64,000 bases of DNA from Lytechinus variegatus (Eukaryota), in contig NC_054743.1 in NCBI RefSeq assembly GCF_018143015.1, positions 35,339,243-35,403,242 on the forward strand, read 5' to 3'. The notes below the pieces were generated by a model. The model had not been told where the DNA came from. It did not search any database and worked only from the letters and a program-made list of their open reading frames with translations. The position numbers and the translations under genes are program-made. Of the stretch, positions 5,343 through 54,246 are shown one piece after another. Numbering within the stretch: the first letter of the stretch is position 1; each line of letters opens with the position of its first letter.

Positions 5343-5469
5343 CTGAAAAAGGAGGAACAAAATCATACATACATACATGTATATCCCACCTCAAAAAAAA
5401 AATCTTAAAATCCATATTCTATTGATCGAAATAGACACCAGAAATGAAAAACTCCAAAAATTTGTTTTG

Positions 5470-5665
5470 CCCAATTGATCATGGGCCCGAAAGCCGTCGT
5501 GCAGCGCCATATCGACGAGGCTCTATCCCTTTTACTCATTAAATGCCAAACAGGGTAGCAGCAACTCCCATCTTTTAACGTCTTTTGGTCTGACGCGGCC
5601 AGGGTTTGAACTCCCCACCTCCCGGTTGTGAGACGGACGCTCTACCAACTAAGCCAACATACCTT
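5470..5665 (-). mobile_element. SINE family 2 copy (tRNA-like head ggctcagttggtagagcgtccgtctcacaaccgg..gttcaaaccc)
   Basis: About 200 bp; near-identical copies at 35255-35450(-) and 51150-51355(+). Confidence 0.8.
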
Positions 5666-7085: not shown

Positions 7086-7269
7086 CTACGACAATAGCGA
7101 ATGAAAAAATAAAAAAGAGACAATAATATATCGTTGAATGTGATAAATACCATGCACTCTCACGATGTCTGAATATGAGGGTGCATAATAGGACCGAGTT
7201 TGAAGTTGATTTATGAAAGGGTTCTTAGAGGTCGAGTTCACTCCAGAAAATGTTGATTTGAATAAATAG

Positions 7270-7860
7270 AGAAAAATCAAACTAGATTAATGATGAAAAA
7301 TTCATCAAAAACGGTTGTAAAATGAGAAAGTTATGACATTTTAAACTTTCCCTTATTTATCACAAAATAATGATAGGTACAACTCAGTGACATGCAAATG
7401 ATGATGTCCCTCACTCACTATTTATTTGTTTTTAACTTAAACAATATTTCATTTTTGTAAACAGATTTGACAATAAGGTCCACCTTGACTGAACCATACA
7501 GTATTAAACAATGCTAATATCACATGTTCAGGGAGGAATTAATCATTGTTTCATTTGACAATGAGGAGAAAATTAGAACATTTCATATTTCATATAATAA
7601 AATACAAAAGAAATAGTGAGTGGGTGACATCATCAGTCTTCTCATTTGAATACCGACAAGGATGTGCATATAACTGTTTTGTGAAATTACATGTAAGCAA
7701 AACTTTAAAATGTCATAACTTCCTTGTTTTACATCTGATTTTGATGAAATTTTCAGTGTTAAGCTTGTTGGATTTTTCTCTTTATATTCAAATCAACTTT
7801 CTGTTGGGGTGGACTTGTCCTTTAAGTTATCAAGAGAATGAAAAGGGGACGAACGGACAG
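7270..7860. mobile_element. foldback/MITE-like element family E (internal inverted repeats agtgagtgggtgacatcatcag; tcatcaaaatcagatgtaaaacaaggaagttatgacatttt)
   Basis: Paralogous copies at 14290-14830 and 50040-50640 with the same internal hairpin architecture. Confidence 0.6.
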
Positions 7861-9290: not shown

Positions 9291-9655
9291 GTTTTCATAC
9301 TGAAGGTGAAGTGGAATTACTCCGGAATAACTCCGGATTGAGTTTATACGCTTGTACTGCGGACCGACTTTAAACCCCCTTTCATATTGGCAAGCACCGC
9401 AGCAGTGTATCCGCAGTCGTTGCAATGGTTTCCAAGCGAGTTCGCGCCATACGTGTGGCGAGATCACAGCGATAAGCGCATACCGCATTTCCGGTGCGGA
9501 GTAACTCCGTTTGTAACCCTCTTCTGGAAGTGGGTTGAGTACTCCGCTTTGAATCCGGATCGAACTAATCTCAGAATTTTCATATTGCCCTCCAAAGTGG
9601 AGCAACTCCTTCTGGACTCCGGACTTACTCCACTTCAGCTCTCACTATGAAAGGG
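9283..9655. mobile_element. MITE with TIR ttttcatactgaaggtgaagtgga
   Basis: 9286-9310 is the reverse complement of 9625-9650. It sits at the edge of duplication copy 1 and is absent from copy 2. Confidence 0.6.
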
Positions 9656-11446
9656 GTAAACGTGTCCTACAGGAAATTTCAACAAAAATATCCGGTCTCT
9701 TAGCTGAATGCCTGAGCAATAAAATTTTCTGTTTTTTTCAATGAGAAAGTTATGGTGGGTAGTTATGTGAAAAACTGATAACCAGAGATGCCAACCTCTT
9801 GACACAAAAAATCAGACTGAATATCCTCAAAAATCATATTTTTTAGTGAAAAATCAGATTTTCACGAAAACTCAACATGACAAGTGCAAGCCTTGAATTA
9901 AGCAAGGCTTTAAAAAAAATTGCCCCCTGCTCGCGGGCTTTTTACAGGAACCGGGGGCAATTTTCTGGAACCAGGGGCAATTTTCTGGAACCAGGGGCAA
10001 TTAAAAAAAAGAATATAACTGTGAACCACACTCCAAATTTGTTTATAGTAAGTGCAACTCCTGCAATTTTTTAATAAGTAGTAAGTAATAGGCTTTTTAA
10101 ACAACTAAGAAATCAGAGTTAAATGTTTAAGCGTGTTTTGACACCCTCACTCCACATCCCCTTTACATGGGCTGATTTACTTTTCATCTTTAATGAACCA
10201 CAAACAATGAACCCCCCCAAAAAAAAAAATCTAAATCAATGAATAAAATAAACATAAAAAAGAGAGAATTCAGATCAAATAATAACTTAGAAAAAAAAAT
10301 TTTAAGTTTTTTTTTTCATGGTTAGAATCACGGTTGTGGGTGAGTGTTTGTGTATGATTGTGACTGTGAGGCGCACTTTGATTGCATATAAATTATGTTA
10401 AAGAAATGAAGAAATTAAATCAATATCTAACTCAGTCTGTTCAAATTCCAGCACATAGCCACAGGCTACATGTGATTTTTTAAATGTACATGTATCGTAG
10501 GTTCATGTACCTTAAGTTTTTCACAAGTTTTTTGAAAACGCAGATATTCACAGAAAATGCCTTTCATTCAGGGGAGAGTCTAAATTCTGTGAAAATGTAT
10601 TCATTAATAACTTGAATATTCATCACAATGAAGGAATCATCAAGTTTTTTTGACAGTTATCAAAAATTAACATGATATCTAAACTCTATCTGAAACAGAA
10701 AATCACCATCACTTAGGCCATTACTGATAGAATTCTCACCCAGAGCTCTGGCAGAGAACGTGAGCTCAAACTGGCTAGCTAACAGCATACAAGTTCCACA
10801 CTCAAGTGCACGGCGTCCTCCTATTTTTTTTTTAGATGGAGCCTTGTTTATAATTTATTGTCTGATATTTACCCCTCACCAAGAAAGAAATTAAAAAGCT
10901 ATAATTCACAACTATTGATTTTGGATTAATAAGGCTCCGTTTTGACAAGCAAAGTCGGCGATGTGAGGATAAAAGACTCGAACATCCTATGTGCTGAGAA
11001 CGGGGATTTATCTCCTGTGCAATTCAAATTACTATTTCACAGAATTGTGATATCCCGACTGGAAATGTGTGCATTAGAAATTACACATGGTGAAGTAGGG
11101 GAAAAACTACTGGAAGCATGCGCGTACATGTATTACAGGAAAAAAAAAAGGGGGACGTAGCTCACTTTTTATGGTACTGAAAAAAAGACGCACTTGGCAA
11201 TTTGAAACTGTGCTTATACATAGCACACATATGGGACAAAAACAGGACAATCAAAGAAAGTCGGGAAATCGTATTTTTGATGGCCAAAATCGTACTGTCG
11301 TATTTTACTTGTTTTATCGTACTAAATACGATAAAATCGTACTGGTTGGCATCTCTGGATAACCAACAAAAAATGTTTGATTATGGGGGATTTAAAGGTG
11401 AAAAGGTGTGTTTCATAAGGGATTTTAAACACATGTGATTGCTTAC

Positions 11447-13750: not shown

Positions 13751-14878
13751 ATTTCATTTGCATGAACTGAACAATTTGAGATCATGAAATCTAAGCTGAA
13801 TGGTGACCAAACAGAAGCTCAGCAACACAACAAAGATGAGCAGCCTCTCTCTATGTTTGTGATATGATCTTTTTTTTTAAATGTAGTTTTCTCACAAAAT
13901 TTCAAACAATTCTATTTGTGGGATTAATATATCATGAGACTCATCATTCTGTAAGGAAAATATTCCTATTTGTCATGTTCCATTTAAAAATATGATTTAT
14001 GAAATTTACATTTAATGATTTTAGGAGGGAGCTGTTCGCATATGACATCACAAATCAAAAATCTTTAAGGTTTCATAACTCTTATTCTTGGATGGATTTT
14101 CATCAAACCTTCACCATTATTTTCTCTAATATTTACTCCGTTATCAAAACCAACTTATTGATGGAGTGAACTTCCCCTTTATATATGATACCTTTAGTGT
14201 TTTCTCTTCATTGATGAAAGTTCACAATAGGTTAACATACATGTAGAGCACACATTTATGCAGTGCCACACGAAAATCTCATTGATTAAAGATCAAGTCC
14301 ATCCCAGAAAAATGTTGATTTTAATTAACAAAGAAAAATCAAACAAATGCAATGTTTTGCTTGATTTTCACAAAACAGTTATATGCATAACTCGGTGATA
14401 TGCAAATGACAGAGATAACGATGTCCCTCAATCACTATTTCTTCTTTTTTACTGTTTGAATTGTACTACATTTTAATTTTACAGATTTTACAATAATGAC
14501 CAACTTGACTGAACCAAAAAATGTTTAAACAATGGTAATTCCACATGTTCAGGGACGAATAAAACTTTGTTTCACATGACAATGAGGAGAAAACTAAAAA
14601 ATTTCATATTTCTCATGACATACAAATGAAATAGTGAGTGGGTGATGTCATCAGTCTCCTCCTTTGCATACCAACCAGGATGTGCTATAACTATTTATGA
14701 AATTAAGCAAAACTTTAAAAACTAGTATATTTTACATCTGATTTTGATGAAAGTTTCCGTGTTATGCTTGTTGGATTTTCCTCTTTATTGGAATCAACTC
14801 TTTTTTGTTGGTATGGACTTGCCCTTTAAGAAGAGATTATTTCAATACTGTAGACAAAGGCATGGTATATCAACAAAC

Positions 14879-15585: not shown

Positions 15586-16075
15586 ATGCAGGCTTACAAA
15601 AAAAGAGGGGGGAAGGGAGATTATCAGCATCACCACCATCATCATCATCATCACCATCATCTACATCATCATCACCATCACAATCATCACCATCACCATT
15701 ATCATCATGATCATCACCATCATCATTATCAGCATCACCATCACCATCACCACCACCATCATTATCATCATTATCATCATCATTATCAGCATCACCATCA
15801 CCACCACCATCATTATCATCAGCATCACCATCATCACCATCACCACCACCATCATTATCATCATCATCACCATCACCATTATCATCATGATCATCACCAT
15901 CATCATTATCAGCATCACCATCATCATCACCATCATCATCATCATCACCATCACCATTATCATCACCATCATCATTATCAGCATCACCATCATCACCATC
16001 ACCACCACCATCATTAACATCATCATCGCCATCATCATAACCATCATCATTATCATCATCACCACCATTACGAAA
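15586..16075. repeat. (CAY)n microsatellite of about 490 bp (catcac/catcat), plus a short copy at 16860-16920 and a (GAAR)n block at 16550-16605
   Basis: Pure trinucleotide periodicity. The poly-His (+) and poly-M/V (-) ORFs here are artefacts. Confidence 0.9.
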
Positions 16076-19507: not shown

Positions 19508-22500
19508 TTTAGTTAAAACTAATTCATTTGAATAAATAGTATCTCCGTCATGTCTCTGGGTAGTCTTCACAGAACGTCTGGTGCTCTGAAACCTCTCTTC
19601 TTCATAGCTTAGCAAAGAATCTCGAAGTTGTGTCTCGGCGATGGAGTGACTGGCAAATCCTAAGCCCTGTGATGCTACCGGGGCATTGGCATGTGTCCAG
19701 TTGTCTGCCCTTGACCGATCGCTGAAACTAAATCCTTGAGACACTCGCGGAACATCACTATGTGTCCGAGCCCTTCCTTCGGACTGACCACCGAAACTGA
19801 ATCCATTTGATACCCTTACAGCACTTTGAGCTTGATCATTTGCTTCATGCTGACTGCTGGAAACAGATCCTTGAGATTCATCAAGACTGGACACCCCTGA
19901 CACTCCCGAGACAGCACTATGCATCCGAGCTATGGCACAAGTTGAACTTCCAAAAAATAACCCTATTGATGGTCTATCAAATCTAGGCATTTGTGACTGA
20001 CTACCAAAACTGAACCCTTGCGACTGGACATTAAAAGGGGACCCTTGTGGCTGGCTACCAAAACCAATTCCTTTGGATGGACCACCAAAAAGTGGCACTT
20101 GTGACTGGCCACTGAAACCAGTTCCTTGTGATGGGCTACTAAAAGGGGACTCTTGTGGCTGATTATCAAACCCAGACTTTTGTAACTGACCACCAAAAAG
20201 TGACCCTTGTGACTGGCCACTAAAAGGGGACCCTTGTAACTGGCTACCAAAACCAATTCCTTTTGATGGACCACCAAAAAGTGGCACTTGTGACTGGCCA
20301 CTGAAACCAGTTCCTTGTGACGGGCTACTAAAAGGGGACTCTTGGGGCTGATTATCAAACCCAGACTTTTGTAACTGACCACCAAAAAGTGACCCTTGTG
20401 TCTGACCACCAAAAAGGGACCCTTGTGACTGGTTACCAAAAAGTGACCCTTGTGATTGGCTACTAAAAGGGGACCCTTGTGATTGATCCCTGAAACCAGT
20501 TCCTTGTGACTGACCACCAAAACTGAACCTATTAGACTGACCATCAAATCCAGACTTTTGTGACTGAGCACCAAAAAGTGACCCGTGTGACTGACCACCT
20601 AAATCTGTTCCTTGTGACTGATCACCGAAACTAAATTCGTTTGGCGTACCAACAGAGCTAGAAGCTGATTTTTGTGACAGAAAACAAAAAGGTGACCCTT
20701 GTGACTGACCACCAAAAATTTGAGCAGTACGTTGTTGAGCTGATTCAGATTTCTTGAAGGACATCCTGTCAGATTGTGAAGAAGATCCAAATAGACCCAC
20801 TGTGGGCTTAGACACTCTTCCCGACATCTGGAAAGGCAAGCTCGTGGGTGGCAGTTCTGTACTTCCATGATTGTTTGTAGACTGCTCTTGTGATGCAGGC
20901 CCATTGACATCAGGAATTTCAAGCTCGCTTCCTTGTCTTGGGCAGAGGGCATTGTTGGCTTGATGATTTGGATGTAGCAATGACATATCTGATGATTCCA
21001 TTTCCTGTGCAGATTTGCTTGGGGATTCCGGGTATGTTTTGGATACTTCCTCTGGTTGCTCTAATCTCTCAGGAGCATTCTGATCCTGTCCACACCAATT
21101 ATCGGGTTGAAAAGGCGTCTCAGTAACTCTCGAATGGTGTGCATGTGTTCCAGTTCCAAGTTTCAGGCTCTGAGGTTTTCCAGTGGAATCACTCACAGAT
21201 TTGTCTAGCATACCTTGGAGATGTTGACGTCCATTTGGATACAATTCTTGACTGAAATCTTGAGCTGTGGTATCCATGGCAACATTAAACCTTTGGAATT
21301 GAGGCCTTTGTTGTAGACTTCCACTATCTCTGGACTCACGGTCAAGCTTCTTTGTCTCACGTTTCTTGCTTTGAGTAGTATCAAGATCCCCACCTTTAAA
21401 GACCTTTTCTCTGCCAATTTCATTTTTACTATCAAGAAAAATGACACCTCTTTCACATTCACTTCTCTCTTCCGCTAAATCATCATCAACATCCACTCCA
21501 AACCCACAGAATTCCACATCTATAGATGGTGCTAACATTGTACTACCTTGATGAATATGATCTTTTTCATTGTTACTAACTTTTTGCAGTTGGGAGGCAG
21601 GTTCAACACCCGAACCCAATGAACAAGGAAACACTTGTACTGACTGCATGGCCTGTTGAACAAGTGAAGGATGAGAAGAATCAAAATCTCGAGAAACTTG
21701 AGCATATGCAGGAGAAGCTGGAGAATATGCAGGAGAGGTTGGAGAATATGCTAAATATATTGGAGAAGTTGGTGGAGAAGTTGGTGAATATGCAGAAGGG
21801 GAGCGCTGCTGCATGGCTTTTCCAAATGTTTGTTTTTGTGTAGCAAGTTTCTGTGACAGAACTGAGCTCCCATGCATTAACGAGTCAGCCCTAATATCTA
21901 GTAGAGACAGATTACTTTCATATGTACTGGAAGCTTTATCAGATATTCTCTCCAAACCTCCAGCAAGGTCCTGGTATTCCGAAGTTCCTCTTGGTTTGGG
22001 ACTACCTTTCCCACCCTTGTTTAAACCAATGGATTTTACAAGATCTGTATGTCCAGAGTTCCGTGGAGGTGGTGCTGGCATTGATTGAGGAAGAGCTCTA
22101 GCAGCTCGGCGTCGAGTTGGAGGTGGAGCACCAATGGCTTCACTCAGAGGTGGAGGTGGCGGATGAGGAGCACTAGCAGCTTTAAGTGACGGAGGAGGAA
22201 GAACAGCACCATACACAGGAGCACCAAACATGGCACCATCATGTGAATGTGGAGCCGAAGCAGCAGGAAGACCACTACCAGTAGGTGGTGGAGGAGCAGG
22301 TGCAGCAAAACGGCCACGAGAAGGAGGCGGAAGAGGAGGAGCATGAAAGCCACTTAGGGGAGGAGGAGGTGGAGGAGCAGCGAAGACACCAGGAGGCGGT
22401 GGAGGAGGATCACAAACACCACCAGTAAGAGGAGCAGCAGCAGGACGGCCATCAGAAGGAGTCAGAGCATAAAACCCACTTTGAGGAGGTGGAGGAGCAG

Positions 22501-22801: not shown

Positions 22802-23147
22802 CTGTACAAAGAACAAAATATGATAGAAAGCAAGCAATGAAATAATATTGATATATAATACAAACAATAATAACATGCAATTTTCATATAGTGCTTGAAA
22901 CGATGCTTTCAAGCTCTACATACTATAACCCACTAACACTAATAGCACTGATTATTTATAAGGGGCTAGTGACATACACTGTATGTACATGTATGTATAA
23001 GCTATAACCCTAGTCATCAGATTCGATCATTCACTCCCACAAAGTGGACTAAACACCATGCATTCATCAGTTTATCTCTTTCAAGGTAATTACAAACCTT
23101 GTTTAAACACTAGTTTTTCTGGGATCTCACATGTAGCACTATTGATT

Positions 23148-23660
23148 AAAAAAGAAGTTCACCCTGAAGAAAAGTTTGTTCTTAAAATAGCAGGAAAAAT
23201 AATAAAAGATATAGATGAAGGTTTGAGGAAAATCCATTAAAGATTATATTATTATATCATCATTATTTTAAATTTAGGATCTGTGATGTCATCAATGAGC
23301 AGTTTGTCATATGTTATGACATATAAAATGCATAAAGTTTAGTAATGGCCTACATGTATTTTTCTTTTTAGAAACAGGTGCGAAAAATATTTGTCTATTG
23401 GGTATATTGAAGGGATAGTAAAAAACATCAAAAATTTTTTTGAGAAAATGACATCTTATTGATTTTTTTTACCATATACCATGTACATGTTAATGTAGGA
23501 AAGCTGCTTGCATATGATGTCACAAATCAAATATTTCAAATTCTTATAACTATTTTATATTTTGGTGGATTTTTCTCAAACCTTTGGCAACAGTTTCAAT
23601 TATTTATTTTTTGCTTTTTTTACGATAAGAATTTTTGTCAGTGTGAACTTTCCGTATAAT
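23148..23660. mobile_element. MITE family B (TIR ttaaaggggaagttcaccctgaagaaaa)
   Basis: Copies at 43698-43990 and 49111-49612 have near-perfect TIRs and ttaa at both ends. This copy is more degenerate. Confidence 0.6.
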
Positions 23661-24320
23661 CCTTATTCACACCAGGCCTGCTCTTTAATCACATCGTTCA
23701 ATTAAATAGTGTCTTATCATTTAAATTCTCACTCATGGTCCATGCTATTTTGTATGTCTTGAGACAAAAAAGTGGTCAACCCTATAAGCCTCTCACGATA
23801 ATGAATGTGGGATTTGTATGCATTATGAAAGAAAAAAAATTATCTAAAAATCAAATGGCACCAGCAATTTATTATGCTCAAAAGCCTGATGCACAATGAA
23901 TGATATATTACCATCCGATTATGAAAGTAATCACAATTGCACGTGATATGAGCATTCCAACTTATAGTTACTCAACGATCAAAGAATTATAAATAGTGGC
24001 ATGAAAACTAAAATAAAAATTCCAGTCTATTTGGAGCCTCCCCATAGAATGAAAGCAAATTCAATTCCAGAGTGTAATGATTTCATCATTCGGCTGCGAC
24101 TTGAAGCCAATTTGAATTTTACCCCGACCACAGGGCTTGCAGCAAGGCAGAATTTGTATATTTATATTCCTAGCTTTACGCCCAACTTTGAATGAAATAG
24201 TTTCACTTCTCAGAACTTTCACATTTGACGCAAAATGTGTTTTGATAAAAAACTTGCGTCGTAGCCGGACCATATCAGCTGAATGATGAATACATTTAAT
24301 GATTTGTGGTTAATACATAC

Positions 24321-25439: not shown

Positions 25440-25565
25440 AAAACAATGATCTACAATATTATTATTAATACCATTATTATCATTATTATTGTTATTATTA
25501 CTATTATTATTATGATCATAATTATTATCATTATTATTATTATTATTATTATTATTACTACTACT

Positions 25566-25621
<56 letters not shown>

Positions 25622-25654
25622 CATTATTATTATTACTATTACTATTACTATTAC

Positions 25655-25690
<36 letters not shown>

Positions 25691-25775
25691 CATCATTAAT
25701 GATACTATTATCATTATTATCATCATTATTATCATTATTACCATCATTATCATTTTCATTACTTTCATAATTATT
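25440..25775. repeat. compound (ATT)n/(ATC)n microsatellite of about 335 bp
   Basis: The low-complexity ORFs 25368..25835(+) and 25451..25768(-) are artefacts. Confidence 0.9.
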
Positions 25776-25801
25776 TTTAAATACTCAATGCTTCTTCATA
25801 C

Positions 25802-25986
25802 CTTCAAATATACTTCTGTGGAGTCTGGTAAATGATCGGTTGCTATGTCCAACGCTTGTTCATAATATTCTTCTGCCTTCAAGACTGAGAATGTGCTCTC
25901 CTTGTTGGCCTGTTCCAGTAGGTCCTCCACCTTCCTCATCGGATCCACCTTCATTAAAAGAGAAATGCCAGTAGTTGCAGTAAAAA
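25802..25986 (-). CDS. candidate PARP4 downstream exon (FTATTGISLLMKVDPMRKVEDLLEQANKESTFSVLKAEEYYEQALDIATDHLPDSTEVYLK)
   Basis: Acceptor ttctcatgaaatcag| and donor AAG|gtatga; one open frame. It starts in phase 1, so at least one undetected exon must lie between 27337 and 25986. About 100 bp of its upstream intron is homologous to the intron upstream of exon 29666-29892. Confidence 0.5.
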
Positions 25987-26320
25987 CTGATTTCATGAGA
26001 AACTCTGTAAAACGAGACTTCATTGTCAGTATATCATCGAGGATCTAGATCTGGTACAGCTACATAAACTGAACGTTGTAAAATCTTGAAATCTACGCTG
26101 AAAAAAAATTACACAATTTCTTCCAGAATCCTTTGGCACATATGTTTTATTTCTACAAACAGACACTTTGGTGGTCATTTCATTGGATTCTGTACGAACT
26201 CATTTTGATATCGTTACCACAACTGGCATTTACCTTTAAATACAAAATAGTTTCAAGTTGAATATTCAAGTTTCAAGTTTTTAAAAACACAGACATGAGT
26301 GAAAAAAATCAATGATCAGG

Positions 26321-29665: not shown

Positions 29666-29892
29666 TCTATTCACCTTCTCTCTCTTTTCAATGGCGACGA
29701 AACTGGTGAGTTGAGTGACGATGGAATACTTCTTGCTAAGATCGATGACATAAGACTTCTGCTGGTTCTTCCTTGCCTCATGGTGGGTCTTGTCAGGGTC
29801 TAAGGTGCCGTCCTCCCAGTCTCTGATCACTGCACGGGCCGTCAAACGATGTAACATCTGCACATCAACAGGTTTAATGAAAGTAGTTAACA
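29666..29892 (-). CDS. PARP4: PARP4-like exon, ITIH-type region (LTTFIKPVDVQMLHRLTARAVIRDWEDGTLDPDKTHHEARKNQQKSYVIDLSKKYSIVTQLTSFVAIEKREK)
   Basis: Acceptor gtgaaatcag| and donor AAG|gtgaat, phase 1 to 0. It matches human PARP4 MIHKLAARALIRDYEDGILHENETSHEMKKQTLKSLIIKLSKENSLITQFTSFVAVEKRDE. Confidence 0.75.
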
Positions 29893-30573
29893 CTGATTTC
29901 ACGAGAGAGCCATAAAACCAAGAATAGTCGTCACTGTATCATCGCAATTCTACACCTGGTACAGTTAAATAAACTGAACTTTGTGAAATCACAAAACCCA
30001 AGATGAACAAATGGAATGCCTGAGGTAGTCCTGCCTGCATTACGCGATTCAATATAGCAGTAGTGCTGACTTTGAAAACAACTAAGATGAATAATTATTC
30101 ACAAAAACATAATACATATGATAATAGAATAAGTTCATTTACCCTAAATAACCTTTGACCTTGACTGTGTGCCCTGAAACTCACGCAAAATGATCAGTCA
30201 TACATTGTACTTGATTTCCCTTATGTCAAAGCTTCATGAAATATGACAATATAAAGAAGTTATGATGACATTTCAAAAATTTGGTTCAAACTTCAATGTT
30301 GATATGCCCAACATGGTCAAAGTTCATGAACCTTAATTGACCATGAACATTAATTGACATTTGACCTTGATCATGTGACCAGAAACTCATGCAAGATGAT
30401 CAGTGAAACTTGATTACACTTTTGTCAATGAAATAGGTCCATTCGTAGGTAACATTTCAAAAACTAATCTAGATTAAGATTTTAATGTTGACAACGAGCA
30501 GCAATCAAATTTAACACCAAAATCAAACGCAACTTGACTTTCGACCAATCAGAAGTGGGTATTTTGGACCTAC

Positions 30574-35130: not shown

Positions 35131-35254
35131 CTGAAGAGGCACAGAATCAAGAGTATTGATTTTTTTTTATTTACATTGATTTACCTTAATAAAATGAATG
35201 AATATCCATATTTTATAGTTCAAAATAGACATGAAATGAAATACTCTGAAAAAT

Positions 35255-35450
35255 TGCTTCGCCCAATTGATCGTGGGCCCGGCAGCGCCAGATCGATGCG
35301 GCTCTATCCCTTTAATCGTTGAACGTCAAACAGGGTAGCAGCAACTCCCATCTTTTAACGTCTTTGGGTCTGACGTGGCCGGGGTTTGAACCCCTAACCC
35401 CCTGGTTGTGAGACGGACGCTCTACCAACTGAGCCAACACACCTTGAGGC
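35255..35450 (-). mobile_element. SINE family 2 copy
   Basis: Near-identical to 5470-5665. Confidence 0.8.
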
Positions 35451-39359: not shown

Positions 39360-41300
39360 TTTGTCATGCTTCTTTCACAAGATGACTTGTGTAAAACATC
39401 ATGTAAAAGGCTGTGTAAAATGTAGATAAAATATTGTGTAAAAAAGTGGGTAAACATTGTGTAAAATAAGGAGTTGCCAATTTAAAGATTGAGTAATGAC
39501 TTGTGTAAAACAATATGTAAACCAGTGAGTAAAACACTGAATCACATATTGTGTACAACAGTGAGTAGAACATTGTGTACAGCAGTGTGTAAAATATTGG
39601 GTAAATACTGTGTAAAACTTTGTGTAAAACAATGAATAAAGCACTGTATAACAGTTGATAAATCACTGAGAAAAACATTGTGTAAACAGTGTGTAAAACA
39701 GTGTAAACGTAGTGATTAAAATTTGAATAAAACTGTGTGGTAAGAAGTGCGTAAAACATTACAGTTACGGTGTAAAATGAGGAATTGCCAATTTGAAGAT
39801 TGACTTTCTGGGGCTTCTTCATCCATCAGATAGGCTCCGTGCCTCTTACTGATTGCTCCCTTGCATTCCTCATGAGCTTGTTCTTCCTCCTTGTACGATG
39901 TGCTTGAAGTTGAAGACGACTTGTGTAAAATTTGTTAATTATTGTGTGAAAAATTTAATCAAAACAGTGGGTAAAACTTTCATGTGCAGAACAGTATAGG
40001 ATAAAAACGTTGTATAAAACGTCGTGCACAGCATTGGGTAAAATGAGGAATTGCCAAATTGAAGTTTGAGTAATACCTTGTGTAAAACAGTGTATAAATT
40101 GTGCATAAATCATCATATAAAAAGAGTGAGCAAAACTGTATGCAAAACATAGTGTAAAGCTGTGTGCAAATTATGTGAAACAGTGTGTGAAAATTAGGAA
40201 TTGCCAATTTAAAGACTGAGTAATGACTTGGGTAAAACAATGTATAAAACTGTGCATAAAGCATCATGTAAAAAATAGTGAGTATAACTGTGTGCAAAAC
40301 ATTGCATGAAACAGTGTGTAAAACATTGTGTAAAACATTTATGTGACAAAATGAGGAGATGCCAATTTGAAGATCGTTTCGGACTCACTGGTGCTTCTTC
40401 ATCCATGAGATAGGCTCCGTGTCCCTTACTGATGGCTTCCTTGTATTCCTTATGAGCCTGTTCTATGTGCTTTTATCCAATTTAGCCTCAAAACATTATT
40501 GTGTGTTATGAATTGTCAAATGAGTTGCCAATTTGAAGTTTGAGTAACGACTTGTGTACAATGTGTAAATCATTGTGCAAAAAAATGATAAAACAGTGGG
40601 TAAACCTTGCGTAAATCAGTGTAGGATAAAACTAGAATGTAAAACACAGCACTGAGTAAAATGAGGAATTGCCAATTTGAAGATTGATTAATGACTTGTG
40701 TAAAACTGTGTATATAACTGTGCATAAAGCATAATGTCAAAATAGTAAGTATAACTGTGTGCAAAACATTGCCTGAAACGGTGGGTAAAAGATTGAGTTA
40801 AACATGTGACACAATGAGATGCCAATTTGAAGATCGACTGACTGGTGCTTCATCATCCATCAGATAGGCTCTGTGCCTCTTACTGATTGCTCCCTTGTAT
40901 TCCTTATGAGCCTGTTCTTCCTCCTTATCTCTTATCTCCTATGAATGCCTCAAAACCTTGTTGTGTGTTATGAGTTGTCAAATGAATAGCCAAGTTGAAG
41001 TTTGAGTAACGACTTGTGTACAATGTGTAAATCATTGTGCAAAAAAATTATAAAACAGTGGGTAAAACCCTGTGTAAATCAGTGTAGGATAAAAACTAGA
41101 ATGTAAAACACAGCATTGAGTAAAATGAGGAATTGCCAATTTGAAGATTGAGTAATGACTTGTGTAAAACTGTGTATAAAAGTATATATAAAGCATCATG
41201 TCAAAAAACAGCAAGTAAAACTGTGTGCAAAACATTGTGAGAAAAATTGTGTAAAACAGTGTGACACAATGAGGAGATGCCAATTTGAAGATCGACTTAC
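39360..41300. repeat. higher-order tandem array (about 460-bp unit of three sub-repeats of about 150 bp, gccaatttgaag plus tgtgtaaaac-like motifs); one sub-repeat per unit is a copy of the 3' end of the VIT exon plus donor
   Basis: The exon-end copy cttcttcatccat(g/c)agatagg...ccttatgagcctgttc recurs at 39806, 40388, 40843 and, in the real exon, 41297. Confidence 0.8.
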
Positions 41301-41519
41301 TGGTGCTTCTTCATCCATGAGATATGCTCCATGCCCCTTACTGATTGCTTCCTTGTATTCCTTATGAGCCTGTTCTTTCTCCTTGACCGTACCCACTATG
41401 TGCTTGTCTCCTATGAATGCCTCGAACCCACACACGGCGGCACTGTCTTCCAGGGGGAATACATACTTGGCTTCGATGGACTCCCGGTTCACGTTGTCAT
41501 ACTCCTGGAAGATGACGAC
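41301..41519 (-). CDS. PARP4: VIT-domain exon (VVIFQEYDNVNRESIEAKYVFPLEDSAAVCGFEAFIGDKHIVGTVKEKEQAHKEYKEAISKGHGAYLMDEEAP)
   Basis: Acceptor tacctctag| and donor CCA|gtaagt, 219 nt, phase 0 to 0. It nearly matches human PARP4 AKYIFPLDDKAAVCGFEAFINGKHIVGEIKEKEEAQQEYLEAVTQGHGAYLM. Confidence 0.85.
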
Positions 41520-43697: not shown

Positions 43698-43990
43698 TTA
43701 AAGGGGAAGTTCACCCTGAAGAAAACTTTGTTGCAAAAATAGCAGAAAAAATACTAGTGAAGGTTTGAGGAAAATCCGTTAAAGAGTAAGAAAGTTATTA
43801 GAGTTCAAAGTTTTGCATTTGTGACGTCATAAACGAGCAGCTGCCCCATGTGTTATGTAATATAAAATGCATGAATTTCAAATTTTGCATGGTTCCTGAT
43901 GACTTAATTTTCTTTTCTATTCATGATCGGGTGTGACATGATTTGTCTATTGATATTTGTCAGGGTGAACTTCCCCTTTAATGGAAACAT
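43698..43990. mobile_element. MITE family B copy
   Basis: ttaaaggggaagttcaccctgaag ... cagggtgaacttcccctttaa. Confidence 0.75.
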
Positions 43991-45039
43991 TTTTAAAAAT
44001 GGACCATTTAGTCTATCTCGATGCCCTTATTTTGTTATTCCATTTAAGTCGTCAAAGGACAGCATCCCCCAAATGTTTGGAAGTCATTACCATATAACTC
44101 CAAAGAATGTTCTTCAATCTGATTGGTCCAAATCAGATCACATGATATTTAGTAGATGGCTCTGTAGCATCCACTCACATTGGAGTGCAGATCTTGCACT
44201 CTGCCAAATGCAATATTAGACAAACTGATTGTAAATATTGGATGAGACCAAATGGGGTTTAGATAAAGTGGATGTAGTGTTGTGTTGGGGTTGGATCGAT
44301 TGCACTTTAACTTTCAACCAGACTTAAGATGAGACGAAGCAATACAAAGCCTATACAGTTCATATATACATTTATTGAAGATGATAACTAAGGTGATGAT
44401 GATGACAAATAATACAGGAACATGAGTAAGTCTGATGGTGACTATACTCTCTAAACTCCAATCTCTAATCTATCTGTACGCTGGAACAATCTGTAAAGTA
44501 ATCTGCAATCTGTAATAATCTCTAACCAATCTCTAACAATCTGTATTAATCTATAACCAATCTGCATTCTCTGAAGTAATCTGATTTTGGTTCAGATGTG
44601 AACCCCTTTTATATTGGTCTGGTCTAGACTCTTTACGATCAAACAGGTGTTGGTCAACCTTGGACGTTTGACCAAAACAATCTGTACGTCATAACTTTAC
44701 TCTGAATTGGGGGAGTTGACCTTTTAGGGAGAACATGAAATGTAGTGAATAAGAAAGCCATAAAATGTGTGTGCATCAGAAGTTTAGCTGGAAGAAGAAT
44801 GAGTAACACTTTCAAATGAAAGTTGGAGCTGGTATACTTCCTGTAGAAATATTGATTAAGTATTGATTATGTATAGATATAATATTGAATATGTGAGATA
44901 TGTCTCATCATCACATAACAGTAGACCAATCTGCAATTTATCATAATTTATTCCTTGAAATGCCTCATCAGCAGCCACTGATAAAACAGTTTTTGTATAG
45001 AGCATTATGATTATAACTTCTCTATATGCTTCCAAAGGA

Positions 45040-45185
45040 CTTCAATATTACTACCCCAGCTTTAGCTTGGTGGCTGTCATTATTTACAGCTTACTCGCAT
45101 TTCAAGGAATTATTTCCTGCCAGGTACCCATTCGCCTCACCTGGGTTGAGTGCAGCACAATGTGAACAATTTCTCATGTGGAGCA
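45040..45185 (-). mobile_element. SINE family 1, partial copy
   Basis: It holds the core ggtacccattcgcctcacctgggttgagtgcagcaca. Confidence 0.6.
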
Positions 45186-45258
45186 ACTAGAATGTCCTAC
45201 ATGTACTTGACAGATTATATTCCCCTTTACAATTATTATTATTATTATTAATACTTAC

Positions 45259-45445
45259 ACTAAAATCGGAAGCTATCTGTCCAGCTACGGCTCCTAAACC
45301 CTTGACACTATCAAAGCCACTTGGAGGTTGGTCGAGGTCTGGGTGATATTTAGTGACTTCATGGCATCTGCCTAAGGACACCTCACATATCATCAGAAAC
45401 CGACTATTACTCAGTTTGCTTTGGACAGAGTAACATGCGCTGGTG
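45259..45445 (-). CDS. PARP4: PARP catalytic-domain exon (STSACYSVQSKLSNSRFLMICEVSLGRCHEVTKYHPDLDQPPSGFDSVKGLGAVAGQIASDFS)
   Basis: Acceptor ctcttctttttaacag| and donor AGT|gtaagt, phase 2 to 0. It matches PARP1 LLLGEVALGNMYEL...PKGKHSVKGLGKTTPDPS and human PARP4 LLLICDVALGKCMDLHEKDFSL..PPGYDSVHGVS. Confidence 0.8.
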
Positions 45446-45449
45446 CTGT

Positions 45450-45810
45450 TAAAAAGAAGAGATACATGTATGTGGTCGGTTAGATTAGAGATTTATTAAC
45501 ATCTGGTTTGAAATTGGTTAAGATCTGGCTGATATTCAAGGACCTAATGACATCTGCCCAAGGATTCCTCACATATCATCAGAAACCAACTATTACTCAA
45601 ATTGCTTTGGACAGAGTAACATACACTGATGCTAAAACAAGAGAGATATAAGATTAGTTAAGATCAGGTAAGAGGTTGGTTTTGATCTTGGTTATATTCC
45701 ATGACCTTATGATATCTGCCTAAAGAAGCCTCACATATCATCAGAAAACAACCATTACTCAAGGTGTTCTGGACAGAGCAACATGCATTGGTGCTAAATT
45801 AAGAGATACA
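45450..45810. repeat. two degenerate tandem copies (about 180 bp each) of the 5' half of catalytic exon 45259-45445 plus its upstream intron
   Basis: The copies read SNLSNSWFLMICEESLGRCH... with stop codons. Confidence 0.75.
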
Positions 45811-46003
45811 TTACAAGCTTAATAGAAAGATGTCTGTTAATAGTACTAATCAATATCAAATTGTTACTAACACACATGGACACAAAAATGAAAACAAGAA
45901 CCATATTAAACGCCTGAGAACTCCTCTCATTTGTGCCAAAACACATTGAATGGTCCAATATTTTATTTTACACGAAAGTAACATCAACTTAAATATGCCT
46001 TAC

Positions 46004-46102
46004 CTGGCACTATCAGCAAAGTAGATTCCATGTCCCAGCATGCCAGCGTCTGTCCGGCTGACACCTAAATCATCAACCACTATCTTAGGCATCAGCAACC
46101 CT
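46004..46102 (-). CDS. PARP4: PARP catalytic-domain exon (GLLMPKIVVDDLGVSRTDAGMLGHGIYFADSA)
   Basis: Acceptor caattttcag| and donor CCAG|gtaagg, phase 2 to 2. It matches the PARP1 motif [27 protein letters not shown] and human PARP4 GLLLPKVVEDRGVQRTDVGNLGSGIYFSDS. Confidence 0.8.
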
Positions 46103-47562
46103 CTGAAAATTGAACAGAATACAATCAAATAGAACATTACTTGATAACATTAAAATTAGTGAATAATTATTTCATTTCATTTATTTTCATATTTCTCATT
46201 GACATTTGATTGACAATAAAAATGAAACAGCAACAATTACACATAATCATAAAATCATAAACAACTGAGAACTATACAATAACATAATATAAAGATACTA
46301 TCAGTCGAGCTATAAAGAAAAAGCTTAATTTAAGTCAAAGAAATATGATGGGACCTACATTAAAGCAAGCTTGAAAAAATTATGACAAGATTACCAAACA
46401 TAGATATCAATGACATCAAAGCTTTAGGAATTAGACTCTAGTATCATCCAATATTCCAATCTTACAAATGACGAGTGGCCCACCGTAGAATTTTCTTCTT
46501 TCTGCAGCTGATTCTCTATGAAAAACTTGAATTTTCAATCCCTCTTTATATTATTTCCCTCTCTCAGAAATGTTTATCTATTTTTTTTTAAAAGGACCAT
46601 TTGAACACTCATCTTATAAAAATTAAGTTTTATAGTTAAGTAAATTATGTGGAATGTTATAGAAACAGTGGATAGAAGAAGAGAAGAAATGGATAGGCGA
46701 GAAAGTGGAGATTTGAGAGTAAAGTATTCTTTCTTGAAAGTAGTCCTGAAAAGGACTGTAAACTGCTTGAGTCGGCGAGTAGAGATGATGAGTAGTAGAG
46801 AGACGGACAGGTTGACTGTCTGTCTTCACTCCTGAAGATGGACAGTCAACCTGTCCGAAACGTCGAGTCTCTCTACTCGCCAACTCAAGCAGTTTACAGT
46901 CCTTTTCAGGACTACTTTCAAGAAAGAATACTTCACCAAATCTGGCCAGGATCCTAACCCACAATGCATCACTAAGCAGTGTAGTCTTGAAATAAAAATG
47001 CTCACTTGAATTCATACCCTAATAACCATATAACCATGAAGCTACATGTAAGTGAAGTACTTTTCCTCTAAAAAACCGTTTTTTTTCTATAGTCTCTCTC
47101 TATTTCTCTAAACAAATAAAAACCATGCACTAATCTACTCCCGATTTTATTCATAGTTGTCTCATAAGGTAAATTTAAAGACTAGCTATTTATAACACAC
47201 AGTTAATAGAGTACTGAAGTGTGGTGTCATCAATTTTCTCTATGTTGCTTTTCAATTTCAGCATTTTTTATACCATATTTCAGTGATGCATGATGAAAAA
47301 CCTCCACAGTCCAAATCTGGTGGGAATCGGTCCATGGGGGCCATAAGATATGACATGATGAATACATAATTAACCCCACTGGAGTAAATGTATTATTGGC
47401 CTGGTTTTAAATGTAATCATGAAGTCATATCTTGGGGGCCCCCATGGACTGATTACCAAATGCAAAAAAAAAATGTTTTTTTTTCGTCCTCACTTCAGTA
47501 CTCTAAAGACTACAAAAGGCATTGGTCAGTTGCTCCCCATTCGAACCTTTAATCATATTTAC

Positions 47563-48625: not shown

Positions 48626-48781
48626 CTTACCCCGTCAAGCTGTCTTGGATCTGTTTTGAAATCTGCTCATACTCTGCCGATTCTGATGTTAGGAGTTCCA
48701 TATGACAGCGGAGAGTACGATACTTGGCCTCTGTACTCCCTCGCATAGACCAATCAGTGGCCTCACAGACGCTGTGCACAT
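48621..48781 (-). CDS. PARP4: PARP4-like exon, helical to catalytic junction (LLSDVHSVCEATDWSMRGSTEAKYRTLRCHMELLTSESAEYEQISKQIQDSLTG)
   Basis: Acceptor tgtgtttttcag| and donor GGG|gtaagg, 161 nt, phase 0 to 2. It resembles human PARP4 LAKYRALRCKIEHVEQNTEEFLRVRKEVLQ. Confidence 0.75.
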
Positions 48782-49110
48782 CACTAAGCAACTGAAAACA
48801 CAGTAAAAAACATTAGACTTCTCTGTCACTGTAACATCAAATACTATCCGGAAATGACTTCTTTACGACAAATTCATCATTATGCCCAGTTGTTATAAAA
48901 TTTGCTGGACAAGTTAATTTCTAGACAAGCTTCAGATGCTGTGAACATCGCTAAGCAACTGAAAACACAGTAAACAACATGGCATTTCTCAGTCATTGCA
49001 CCATCAAATGATTTTTTTTCCAGTTAAAACTTGAAAACAGTAGTGCTTATTTTGTTGAAATCGGATTTGACTATGGTGATTTTGATAATAAAATTAAGAA
49101 ACTTAACTAA

Positions 49111-49612
49111 TTAAAGGGGAAGTTCACCCTGAAGAAAACTTTGTTGTAAAAATAGCAGAAAAAATAGTAAAAAATATTGGTGAAGTTTTGAGGAAAATCC
49201 GTTGAAGAGTAAAAAAGTTATTAGAGTTCAAAGTTTTGGATTTGTGACGTCATAAACGAGCAGCTGCCCCATGTGTTATGTAATATAAAATGCATGAATT
49301 TCAAATTTTTTATGGTTCCTGATGACTTAATTTTGTTTTCTATTCATGATCGGGTGTGAAATGATTTGTATATTAGATACAGTGAAAACCATTTTCAATT
49401 TTCTGAGAAAATGACATTTCATTGAATTTTTACCATTCGCTATGTAGGAATGCTGCTCGCATATGACGTCACAAATCAAATAATTGAAATTCTAATAACT
49501 TTTTAATTATTTGATGGATTTTTCTCAAACCTTCGGCAATATTTATTGTTATTTTTTCTGCTATTTTTACAATAAACTTTTTGTCAGGGTGAACTTCCCC
49601 TTTAATCACTTG
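49111..49612. mobile_element. MITE family B copy (about 500 bp)
   Basis: Perfect TIRs with ttaa at both ends. Confidence 0.75.
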
Positions 49613-51149
49613 GTCTGGTGGATTTAATGGCAGCTGGGCATAATAACAAATTTGGCCTAAAGTATATGTTTTAATATTCTGAACATGACATGAATGACTT
49701 TTTTTCTTGGATTTTTACTGCTTTTTTCGTTATTAATACTCAGCTGATTTTCAATCTACAACCTCTGGATACAAGGAATTCAAATTCTTTATATGGAGCA
49801 TTATCTGTGATAATTCTTGACAAGAACTCAAGAAAGGAGATTAAGGAAATGGCTTGCCATAGCCTACGCATGTTGTTTCATGCTAACTAAAACATTCCGG
49901 TATGACAGCCCATTCAGAAATACTGTGACAACCACTCCAGAATGAAGTAAAGTCTGGTTTCACTTTCACGTACTTGCCAAGTCTTCACACAGATTACTAC
50001 TCTCTTTAAGGACAAATCCACCCCAACAAAAACTTGATTTGAATAAAAAGAGAAAAAAACTCAACAAGCAATAACACTGAAAATTTCATCAAAATCGGAT
50101 GTGAAACAAGAAAGCTATGACATTTTAAAGTTTCACTTCATTTCACAAAACAGTTATATGCACATCTCGTTCGGTATGCAAATGAGGGAACTGATGACAT
50201 CACTCACTCACTATTTCTTTGTATTTTACTATATGAAATATTTTGATTTTCTCGTCATTGTCATGTGAAATGAAGTTTCATTCCTCCCTGAACACATGGA
50301 ATTCCATTATTTTAACATTTTGTGCTTCAGGATAGGAGGTGCTTATCATCAAATTCGTAACTATTAAAATATTTTATAATTCAAACAATAAAAAACAAAA
50401 AAATAGTGAGTGACATCATCGACTCTCTCATTTAGATGTAACCGGCTCATTCATATAACTATTTTGTTAAAAATTAGCAAAAATTTGAAATGTCATAACT
50501 TTCTTATTTTACATCCGATTTTGATGAAATTTTCAGCATTGTGCTTGTCTGATTTTTCTCTATTGATTCAAATCAACATTTTTCTGAAGGTGGACTTGAC
50601 CTTTAACTATCTCTTTCTTGCCTCTCGATTCCTACTCAATCTCTTTCATTTTCATTTCTCTTCAATCAAATAGTCCTTCACAGGTTTATTCATGAGGTGA
50701 ACCCTATTAAGCATTGTCAAAGCTTCATGTACAAAGATCACCTAGTCAAACATAAATATCTGCTGATCATAAATCTTGTTCAACACTGGGTGATTGGTAA
50801 CAGCTGTTACAGTCTTACGCACCTGGATGGTGTCAAGTTCCCCAATGAAAACTGATGACCATTGCCTATTAAAAGCTTTTTATTACTTAAGTACACTGTC
50901 ACATCCTTCCATGCAAGCCTTGCGTGTGTCTTGTGGGTAACCATTTATGCTACTCGCAGGTCGCCTGCAATGACAGTATCCGGCGCGGATCTAACACGCA
51001 GTTGCCTAAGGAAGCGCACGCAAGTCTGATTTGGGCGCAAAAAAGTTTTGAACACGCTCAAAACTCTATTGTGCGTGAGTTGCGAGCAATCATCCGTAAC
51101 ATATCGGCGAGGCTTGCACGGAACAATGTGACAGGTCCTTTATAACCAG

Positions 51150-51355
51150 TGTATCGGCTCAGTTGGTAGAGCGTCTGTCTCACAACCGGGTGGTCGGGGG
51201 CTCAAACCCCGGCCGCGTCAGATCAAATGACGTTCAAAGATGGGAGTTGCTGCTTCCCTGTTTGTCGTTCAATGATTAAAGGGATAGAGCCTCGTCGATC
51301 TGCCGTTGCACAGCAACTTCCAGGCCCACAATCAATTGGGCAAAGAAAATTTTCG
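51150..51355 (+). mobile_element. SINE family 2 copy
   Basis: Head ggctcagttggtagagcgtctgtctcacaaccgggtggtcgggggctcaaacccc. Confidence 0.8.
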
Positions 51356-51462
51356 AGGTGTTTCATTTCATGTCTATTTCCAACAATAAAATATGGATTT
51401 TTATCTTACATCTTTTTATTCATTCTTAAATATGCATATATTATGAGAGCTTGAATACTAAC

Positions 51463-53954: not shown

Positions 53955-54165
53955 TGAGAATATGACGTATTGCTGACCTCGTCACATGACACCCTATCCA
54001 AAGGGCATGAGAGTATATCATTAAGATGACCTTTTGCTTACCTGGTCACGCGACACCCTATCCATGGGACATGAGAGTATGTCATTAAGATGACCTTTTG
54101 CTTACCTGGTCACGTGACACCCTATCCATGGGACATGAGAGTATGTCATTGAGATGACCTATGGC
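53955..54165. repeat. 61-bp tandem repeat x about 3.4, made of copies of the 3' end plus donor of exon 54106-54246
   Basis: The unit catgtcccatggatagggtgtcacgtgaccaggtaagcaaaaggtcatcttaatgacatactct is repeated. Two copies retain CCAG|gtaagc. Confidence 0.85.
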
Positions 54166-54246
54166 TTCCATCCATATCTGCTCCACAAGGGCTACTAAAT
54201 CCGATGAAAGCTTCTCACCAGCCAAATAACCCGCATCAAAGGAATC
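54106..54246 (-). CDS. PARP4: PARP4-like exon, start of the PARP alpha-helical regulatory domain (DSFDAGYLAGEKLSSDLVALVEQIWMEAIGHLNDILSCPMDRVSRDQ)
   Basis: Acceptor ttttttatgatttag| and donor CAG|gtaagc. It matches human PARP4 SQEVSDLVEMIWAEALGHLEHMLLKPVNRISLND closely. Its 3' end plus donor is tandemly triplicated downstream (53955-54165). Confidence 0.7.

Follow-up and report, generated by a model that had tools for sequence, protein, structure and literature searches.

Two degenerate copies of the 5' part of a PARP catalytic exon, each carrying the acceptor end of the intron upstream of that exon, lie in tandem with the exon in the window (the whole stretch of DNA that we analyzed, 64,000 nucleotides). 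These copies very probably arose by local tandem duplication across the intron-exon junction, which left the downstream copy functional and the upstream copies decaying as intron. A sequence-only reading of the window had described the units as degenerate tandem copies of this kind, and blastn bore out that description (77 to 80% identity, E ≤ 4e-27).

The minus-strand gene in the window is, by its sequence, an orthologue of PARP4 (vault PARP). Using open frames together with tblastn of homologues, we found a minus-strand domain order of BRCT (about 59.3 kb), helical and PARP catalytic exons (54.2 to 43.3 kb), VIT (42.8 to 37.5 kb), and vWA (35.1 to 29.7 kb). This BRCT-PARP-VIT-vWA layout is common to the human PARP4 protein (PDB 8swy, 8sx1, and 9bw6) and the window gene. 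The joined catalytic exons matched the Pfam PARP domain PF00644 with an E value of 1e-34. Their best match among solved structures was human PARP4 (8swy, E 2e-41), to which they aligned end to end, and structure matches beyond PARP4 were weaker (1.7e-23 for PARP2 and about 1e-17 for PARP1). The motifs LLFHSS, GIYFADS, and NEFTIY of the window gene aligned with LLHGS, GIYFSDS, and DEFVVY of human PARP4, with the His-Tyr-Glu positions aligned. The best named homologue was the "Protein mono-ADP-ribosyltransferase parp4" of the coral Desmophyllum pertusum (52% identity), and the PARP4 proteins of fish, frog, bird, and mollusc were 41 to 50% identical to the window gene; the Pfam domains of the homologues were PF00533, PF00644, PF08487, and PF00092/PF13768. 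Compared with the named PARP4 homologues, the window protein is only about 44 to 52% identical, and two protein searches of sequence collections returned no homologue above about 52 to 60% protein identity. 3' of the vWA region, the gene has a single open exon of 1177 codons (22915-19385, minus strand). This exon contains long proline-rich stretches and a coding tandem array (19975-20632) with periods of 27, 54, and 189 nt that encodes GGQSQGSLFG-type repeats.

The functional catalytic-domain exon, which is copy A of the repeat, is 187 nt long (45445->45259, minus strand) and was recognized from its sequence, its translation, and tblastn, with nine PARP4 homologues supporting 45259-45445. It encodes TSACYSVQSKLSNSRFLMICEVSLGRCHEVTKYHPDLDQPPSGFDSVKGLGAVAGQIASDFS, and this peptide aligns with the human PARP4 segment STSIKYSHPGETDGTRLLLICDVALGKCMDLHEKDFSLTEAPPGYDSVHGVSQTA-SVTTDFE. 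The exon is preceded by tctcttctttttaacAG, with the acceptor AG at 45447-45446, and followed by gtaagt, with the donor GT at 45258-45257. From the reading frame and the protein homology to PARP4, we infer that this acceptor is used rather than the ones upstream of it. The intron that houses both copies, with splice sites read from the sequence, spans 558 nt (46003->45446, minus strand), of which the two copies make up about 363 nt (65%). On its other side is the upstream PARP catalytic exon GLLMPKIVVDDLGVSRTDAGMLGHGIYFADSA (46102->46004, minus strand), which contains ...GIYFADSA and ends GCCAG/gtaagg (slashes mark splice junctions).

A repeat search grouped the exon and the two intronic copies as the three 162-nt members of a single direct-repeat family (45296-45457, 45482-45643, and 45644-45805). 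The starts of the units are spaced by 186 and 162 nt, with the difference being one 24-nt indel, and the three units run head to tail without a spacer, sharing one orientation and register. In blastn against the whole 64-kb window, the exon unit matched copy B at 80% over 147 nt (E 8e-32) and copy C at 77% over 144 nt (E 4e-27), and copies B and C matched each other at 78% over 162 nt without gaps (E 3e-33). An alignment of the three units, which the sequence-only reading had proposed as a check, showed that all of them can be aligned to the exon over its first 122 nt at 78 to 83% (A-B, 83%; A-C, 78%; B-C, 79.5%). The three units share the 19-mer TTTCTGATGATATGTGAGG without any change, and it occurs three times in the window at three or fewer mismatches, compared with the 0.04 occurrences expected from shuffles. 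Tandem Repeats Finder missed the array when run on this region because the copies are too diverged.

Both intronic units have the same construction on the minus strand. In copy B (45448..45633), the pseudo-acceptor tctctcttgttttAG (AG 45633-45632) is followed by 122 nt of exon-like sequence (45631->45510) and then by a tail of 62 nt that extends as far as the real acceptor. Copy C (45634..45812) has the pseudo-acceptor tgtatctcttaatttAG (AG 45795-45794), 122 exon-like nt (45793->45672), and a tail of 38 nt. Beyond about ...AACCAACCTC, which is exon nt 122 to 125, neither copy is homologous to the exon, and each copy thus contains about 122 to 125 nt of the exon's 5' end and about 16 to 40 nt of intron, including the polypyrimidine tract and the AG. 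When the tails of B (62 nt) and C (38 nt) were compared with the last ~62 nt of the exon, the similarity was no better than that of shuffled sequence, and this lack of similarity ruled out duplication of the whole exon. The two tails do resemble each other (local score of 13, compared with 8.1 +/- 1.6 for shuffled sequence and reached by 10 of 500 shuffles), and they resemble, more weakly, the 16 to 38 nt before each acceptor. Because the tails are like acceptor-proximal intron and unlike the 3' part of the exon, the duplicated segment would have consisted of ~16 to 40 nt of the intron's 3' end and ~125 nt of exon. The earlier estimate of about 180 bp of exon in each copy was therefore right about the 5' part but too long, since only about 122 to 125 of the 187 nt can be aligned. 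Similarly, the upstream intron had been counted as part of the copies, and its last ~16 to 40 nt are, but the whole intron is absent from them.

Next, we examined the state of the copies. Copy B translates as ISVCYSVQSNLSNSWFLMICEESLGRCH followed by a stop, an in-frame TAG after ...SLGRCH, and the interrupted translation reported previously (...SNSWFLMICEESLGRCH, then a stop) is exactly the minus-strand reading of this copy. Copy C translates as TNACCSVQNTLSNGCFLMICEASLGRYHKVMEYNQDQNQPLT followed by a stop, with the frame open for 43 codons until a TGA at the end of the homology, and the conserved Tyr of its ACY motif has become Cys. Thus, the statement that both copies are interrupted by stops holds for B but not for C, which is without an internal stop inside the homologous stretch. 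Both copies are without the exon's last ~62 nt and without its donor, and no donor is found in register, so B and C cannot be spliced in productively. Two cryptic donors picked out by eye were rejected: CATTAG/GTCCTT in B because it includes a stop codon and CATAAG/GTCATG in C because the resulting insert would have a length not divisible by three. If either of the upstream AGs were used, translation would run into a stop.

The substitutions were also tabulated by codon position. Changes private to B and C are distributed 4:10:6 over codon positions 1:2:3, with no third-position bias, and those private to the exon are distributed 4:1:4; both sets are small numbers. The exon differs from a base shared by B and C at nine sites, and at six of them the exon has C where the two copies have T. 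Of these C-to-T sites, at least three are CpGs (CAGCGC, GTCGG, and CTCGAC), which are kept in the exon and lost in the copies. The spread over codon positions and the CpG losses fit an unconstrained, methylation-driven decay of B and C, and neither copy shows a sign of function.

We then looked at orthologous loci. The intron has the same position and phase (after ...YFA.SA and before (T/S).A.YS) in three other loci: L001, a JGI metagenome contig; L003, an ENA contig; and L004, the 18-kb Desmophyllum PARP4 gene. The upstream exon (46004-46102) has 78 to 88% protein identity in all three. In L001, this exon is 88% identical and ends GCAAG/gtagaa, followed by at least 690 nt of intron, and the contig ends before the focal exon. 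In L003, the junctions read GCAAG/gtatgt ... tttgtag/CACTTGCGCA, and the orthologous exon is single copy in 21.6 kb and continues through the KDDEF motif. In L004, the same intron is present and the exon is single copy, with its coding segment split by one extra intron. This extra intron of D. pertusum follows ...ALGSIKE, lies between 9403-9486 and 10942-11049, and is absent from the window gene and L003. The comparison of orthologous loci that had been suggested for dating the duplications therefore yielded a single-copy exon in two distant loci (L003 and L004), but no close relative was retrieved. Because the same intron occurs in three other loci and the exon is single copy in two of them, the intron is of ancient origin, and the duplication belongs to the window's lineage only. 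The intron position itself is not novel, being present in the orthologues; an existing intron was enlarged, and none was created.

Taken together, these results suggest the following origin. A segment of ~160 to 190 bp would have been duplicated locally in tandem, either twice or as a single triplication, likely through replication slippage, unequal exchange, or end joining, any one of which may be the cause. The two ends of the segment would have lain in the last ~16 to 40 nt of the ancient intron and ~125 nt inside the PARP4 catalytic-domain exon that follows. The copy farthest downstream would have stayed joined to the remainder of the exon and become the functional exon of today, and the two upstream copies would have been absorbed into the intron, tripling its length, and drifted neutrally since. 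The arrangement of an intact copy nearest the exon remainder, with acceptor-bearing stumps upstream, is found because one breakpoint would have been intronic and the other exonic.

The divergence among the units gives a rough age. By hand calculation, the Jukes-Cantor distances are 0.20 (A-B), 0.26 (A-C), and 0.24 (B-C), and the branches are about 0.11, 0.09, and 0.15. These three-way distances are star-like and thus do not fix the order and number of the duplication events. Contrary to the simple prediction of purifying selection, the exon branch is not visibly shorter than the branches of the copies; this can be accounted for if B and C lost CpGs in parallel or descend from a common ancestral copy. 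With ~0.24 substitutions/site between B and C, or ~0.12 per lineage, and a rate of 1 to 5e-9 per site per year, we infer that the duplication is roughly tens of millions of years old at typical animal neutral rates.

The AGs and polypyrimidine tracts retained in B and C may occasionally serve as decoy 3' splice sites and so give rise to transcripts with a premature stop, which would presumably be removed by nonsense-mediated decay. Judged from the sequence, such occasional use followed by decay is plausible. A functional version, in which selection has kept the junction duplications and the pseudo-acceptors of both copies work as decoy or "poison" 3' splice sites to tune PARP4 via nonsense-mediated decay, we consider improbable. 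The pseudo-acceptors are similar to the real site in composition, with pyrimidines at 15 of 18 (B) and 12 of 18 (C) positions from -20 to -3 compared with 14 of 18 at the real site, and all three end in YAG/C. However, conservation in the acceptor regions does not exceed that of the remaining unit sequence (~80%). Disease pseudo-exons usually come from point mutations or transposons. The copies are like intronic pseudo-exons and decoy splice sites in having intact acceptor-like signals and in leading to a premature stop if used, but unlike the disease examples, they derive from the neighboring exon itself.

The decoy reading also draws on other duplications in the same gene, since four of its seven local duplications span a junction and keep the copied splice site, a marginal enrichment. 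Two of these had been cited by the sequence-only reading, and both are real. The one cited as 53955-54165 occupies 53959-54167 (minus strand) and consists of a 64-nt unit repeated 3.2 times at 84 to 90% identity, with the unit made up of the last ~50 nt of an exon, the donor CAG/GTAAGC, and 14 nt of intron. Here, the donor was copied intact once (the second copy, which is perfect) and degraded once. Since 64 is not divisible by three, splicing from a downstream donor would change the reading frame and run into a stop. The one cited as 39360-41300 occupies 39387-41429 (minus strand) and contains four to five copies, with a period of ~462 to 580 nt, of the 3' part of a VIT-domain exon and the intron downstream of it. 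These VIT-exon copies are strikingly protein-like. All of them (39.7 to 40.9 kb) attract tblastn matches from PARP4 homologues, and the copy at about 40365-40472 reads QAHKEYKEAISKGHGAYLMDEEAP, identical to the real exon (41286-41519), which suggests recent duplication or gene conversion. The intron between the VIT-exon copies is built of 12-nt TGTGTAAAACAx-like repeats.

Self-comparison of 29.6 to 59.4 kb, which gave the seven local duplications, added a fourth junction-spanning one that was absent from the earlier list (48766..49009, minus strand; segments 48766-48842 and 48933-49009). In it, ~45 nt of the 3' end of an intron and the first ~32 nt of a PARP-domain exon (start at ~48793) recur 167 nt upstream with 84% identity. 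In this second copy (48933-49009), the acceptor ctgtgttttcag/TTGCTTAG is intact, and the frame then reads into a stop. The identities of the four events differ (77 to 94%), implying that they arose at different times. Additionally, 25979-26106 and 29885-30011, which are not adjacent but 3.9 kb apart, are 72% similar over 128 nt (E 5e-11). Both lie in the C-terminal part of the gene and consist of the 3' end of an intron and the start of an exon, and they may be the trace of an older exon duplication within the gene or of an exon start that came from a repeat. A splice site and part of an exon have thus been copied in four local duplications, and possibly in a fifth, nonadjacent one, in a single PARP4 gene.

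The three duplications known to the sequence-only reading had been called an unusual concentration in one gene, and this was not established. In a simulation that drew random positions for seven segments, with lengths matching the observed units, on an approximate map of the gene's 22 exons, 1.6 to 1.8 of the seven were expected to span a junction. The simulated probability was 0.19 to 0.25 for at least three of seven and 0.04 to 0.07 for at least four of seven, so the concentration at junctions is marginal at best. The count is also biased upward because duplicates partnered by a conserved exon stay alignable longer than purely intronic ones. An enrichment this weak (P of 0.04 to 0.07), and inflated by detection bias, speaks against selected decoys. 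The coral orthologue speaks against them as well: it has three local duplications, none of which spans a junction, and junction spanning is therefore not a property intrinsic to PARP4. The window overall is rich in tandem arrays (17 Tandem Repeats Finder rows). It is quite improbable, in our estimation, that exon-intron junctions in this gene or genome are preferred sites of small tandem duplication or that such duplications are preferentially retained, whether through junction-associated mutation or through selection for nonsense-mediated-decay decoys.

Another possibility that we considered is a functional tandem exon duplication, in which B and C would serve as alternative, or mutually exclusive, forms of the exon. 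Each copy has an acceptor, C keeps a 43-codon open frame with the FLMICE..SLGR motif, and appending the peptide of either copy to the upstream exon still gives a score against Pfam PARP. However, the missing 3' ~62 nt and the lack of a donor in register, the in-frame stop of B, the stop that is read on use of either acceptor, the abutting of the units with no separate intron between them, and the loss of the conserved Tyr in C together make functional alternative exons very unlikely. Letunic, Copley, and Bork reportedly described, in 2002, how tandem exon duplication leads to mutually exclusive exons and found unannotated exon copies in introns. The array resembles such clusters in being an exon-derived tandem repeat in an adjacent intron of the same gene, but its copies are without the 3' third of the exon, a donor, and a separating intron, and they are interrupted by a stop or damaged.

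It is equally unlikely, that is, very improbable, that the units belong to an interspersed repeat or transposon family, or are a transposon-captured exon fragment, and adjoin the exon by chance. The introns of the window are full of interspersed repeat families. However, the check for interspersed repeats proposed with the original description found no match to the units elsewhere in the 64-kb window: there is no further copy of the unit, no other blastn match falls below an E value of 0.07, and no dispersed family of the window overlaps 45259-45812. Furthermore, 44500-46500 contains no inverted-repeat pairs and no terminal inverted repeats, and the tandem register between the units and the exon is exact. 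Scanning metagenome contigs with the invariant 19-mer returned four contigs that share only 19 to 20 bases, about the chance level, and a metagenome scan with the exon peptide gave 398 pattern matches, none of which was confirmed. None of the features that define a mutually exclusive exon cluster or a transposon-borne fragment is present in the array. Finally, a falsely expanded repeat has a negligible chance of being the explanation, because assembly artefacts give near-identical copies and these copies differ at 17 to 23% of positions and by a 24-nt indel.

Several other elements were seen in the window. An Rfam scan gave a single match, which was tRNA-like (35371-35443, minus strand, 30.2 bits, just above threshold), and none in the region of the copies. 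The match sits in an interspersed family of ~250 nt (5407-5665, 35198-35445, and 51149-51404; 82 to 84% identity), which is probably a tRNA-derived SINE. The copies of a ~600-nt interspersed element (7223-7826, 14355-14831, and 50003-50606) match on both strands, and this element is therefore internally palindromic, being MITE-like or foldback-like. A further interspersed family has intronic members at 43698-43955 and 49111-49379 that flank the studied exon region and are 92% identical, with others at 23145-23661 and 14027-14181. Long tri- and hexanucleotide arrays of (ATCATC)n, (TAT)n, and (CTA)n (15623-16068, 25457-25779, and 2214-2418) produce spurious long open frames on several strands.

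Local tandem duplication across the junction, the reading that we prefer, makes B and C an ordinary leftover of DNA duplication of a known kind, and the array is a new instance of it in an uncharacterized PARP4 gene. Partial tandem duplication of coding sequence that has turned intronic is a recognized process and one proposed route of intron gain (Lehmann et al. 2010, PMC2891723). As in the Rogers model of intron gain, a tandem duplication of a few hundred base pairs includes coding sequence and a splice signal, and one copy is spliced out. In contrast to that model, in which an exonic proto-splice site is duplicated and a new intron results, an existing conserved acceptor was copied here, and what changed was merely the length of the old intron, roughly 195 nt before and 558 nt now, with no new intron position. 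A 2011 study by Hellsten et al. is said to belong with the Rogers model, as intron gain by tandem duplication of exonic sequence.

The PARP4 array is a clean and datable example of how a duplication that crosses a junction lengthens an intron with dead exon fragments while the gene stays intact and decoy-like acceptors are left behind. Gene predictors and homology-based exon callers can be misled by fragments of this kind, and on its own the array is of little importance. Something new for mutational or splicing biology would come only from an enrichment of these events at junctions across the genome.
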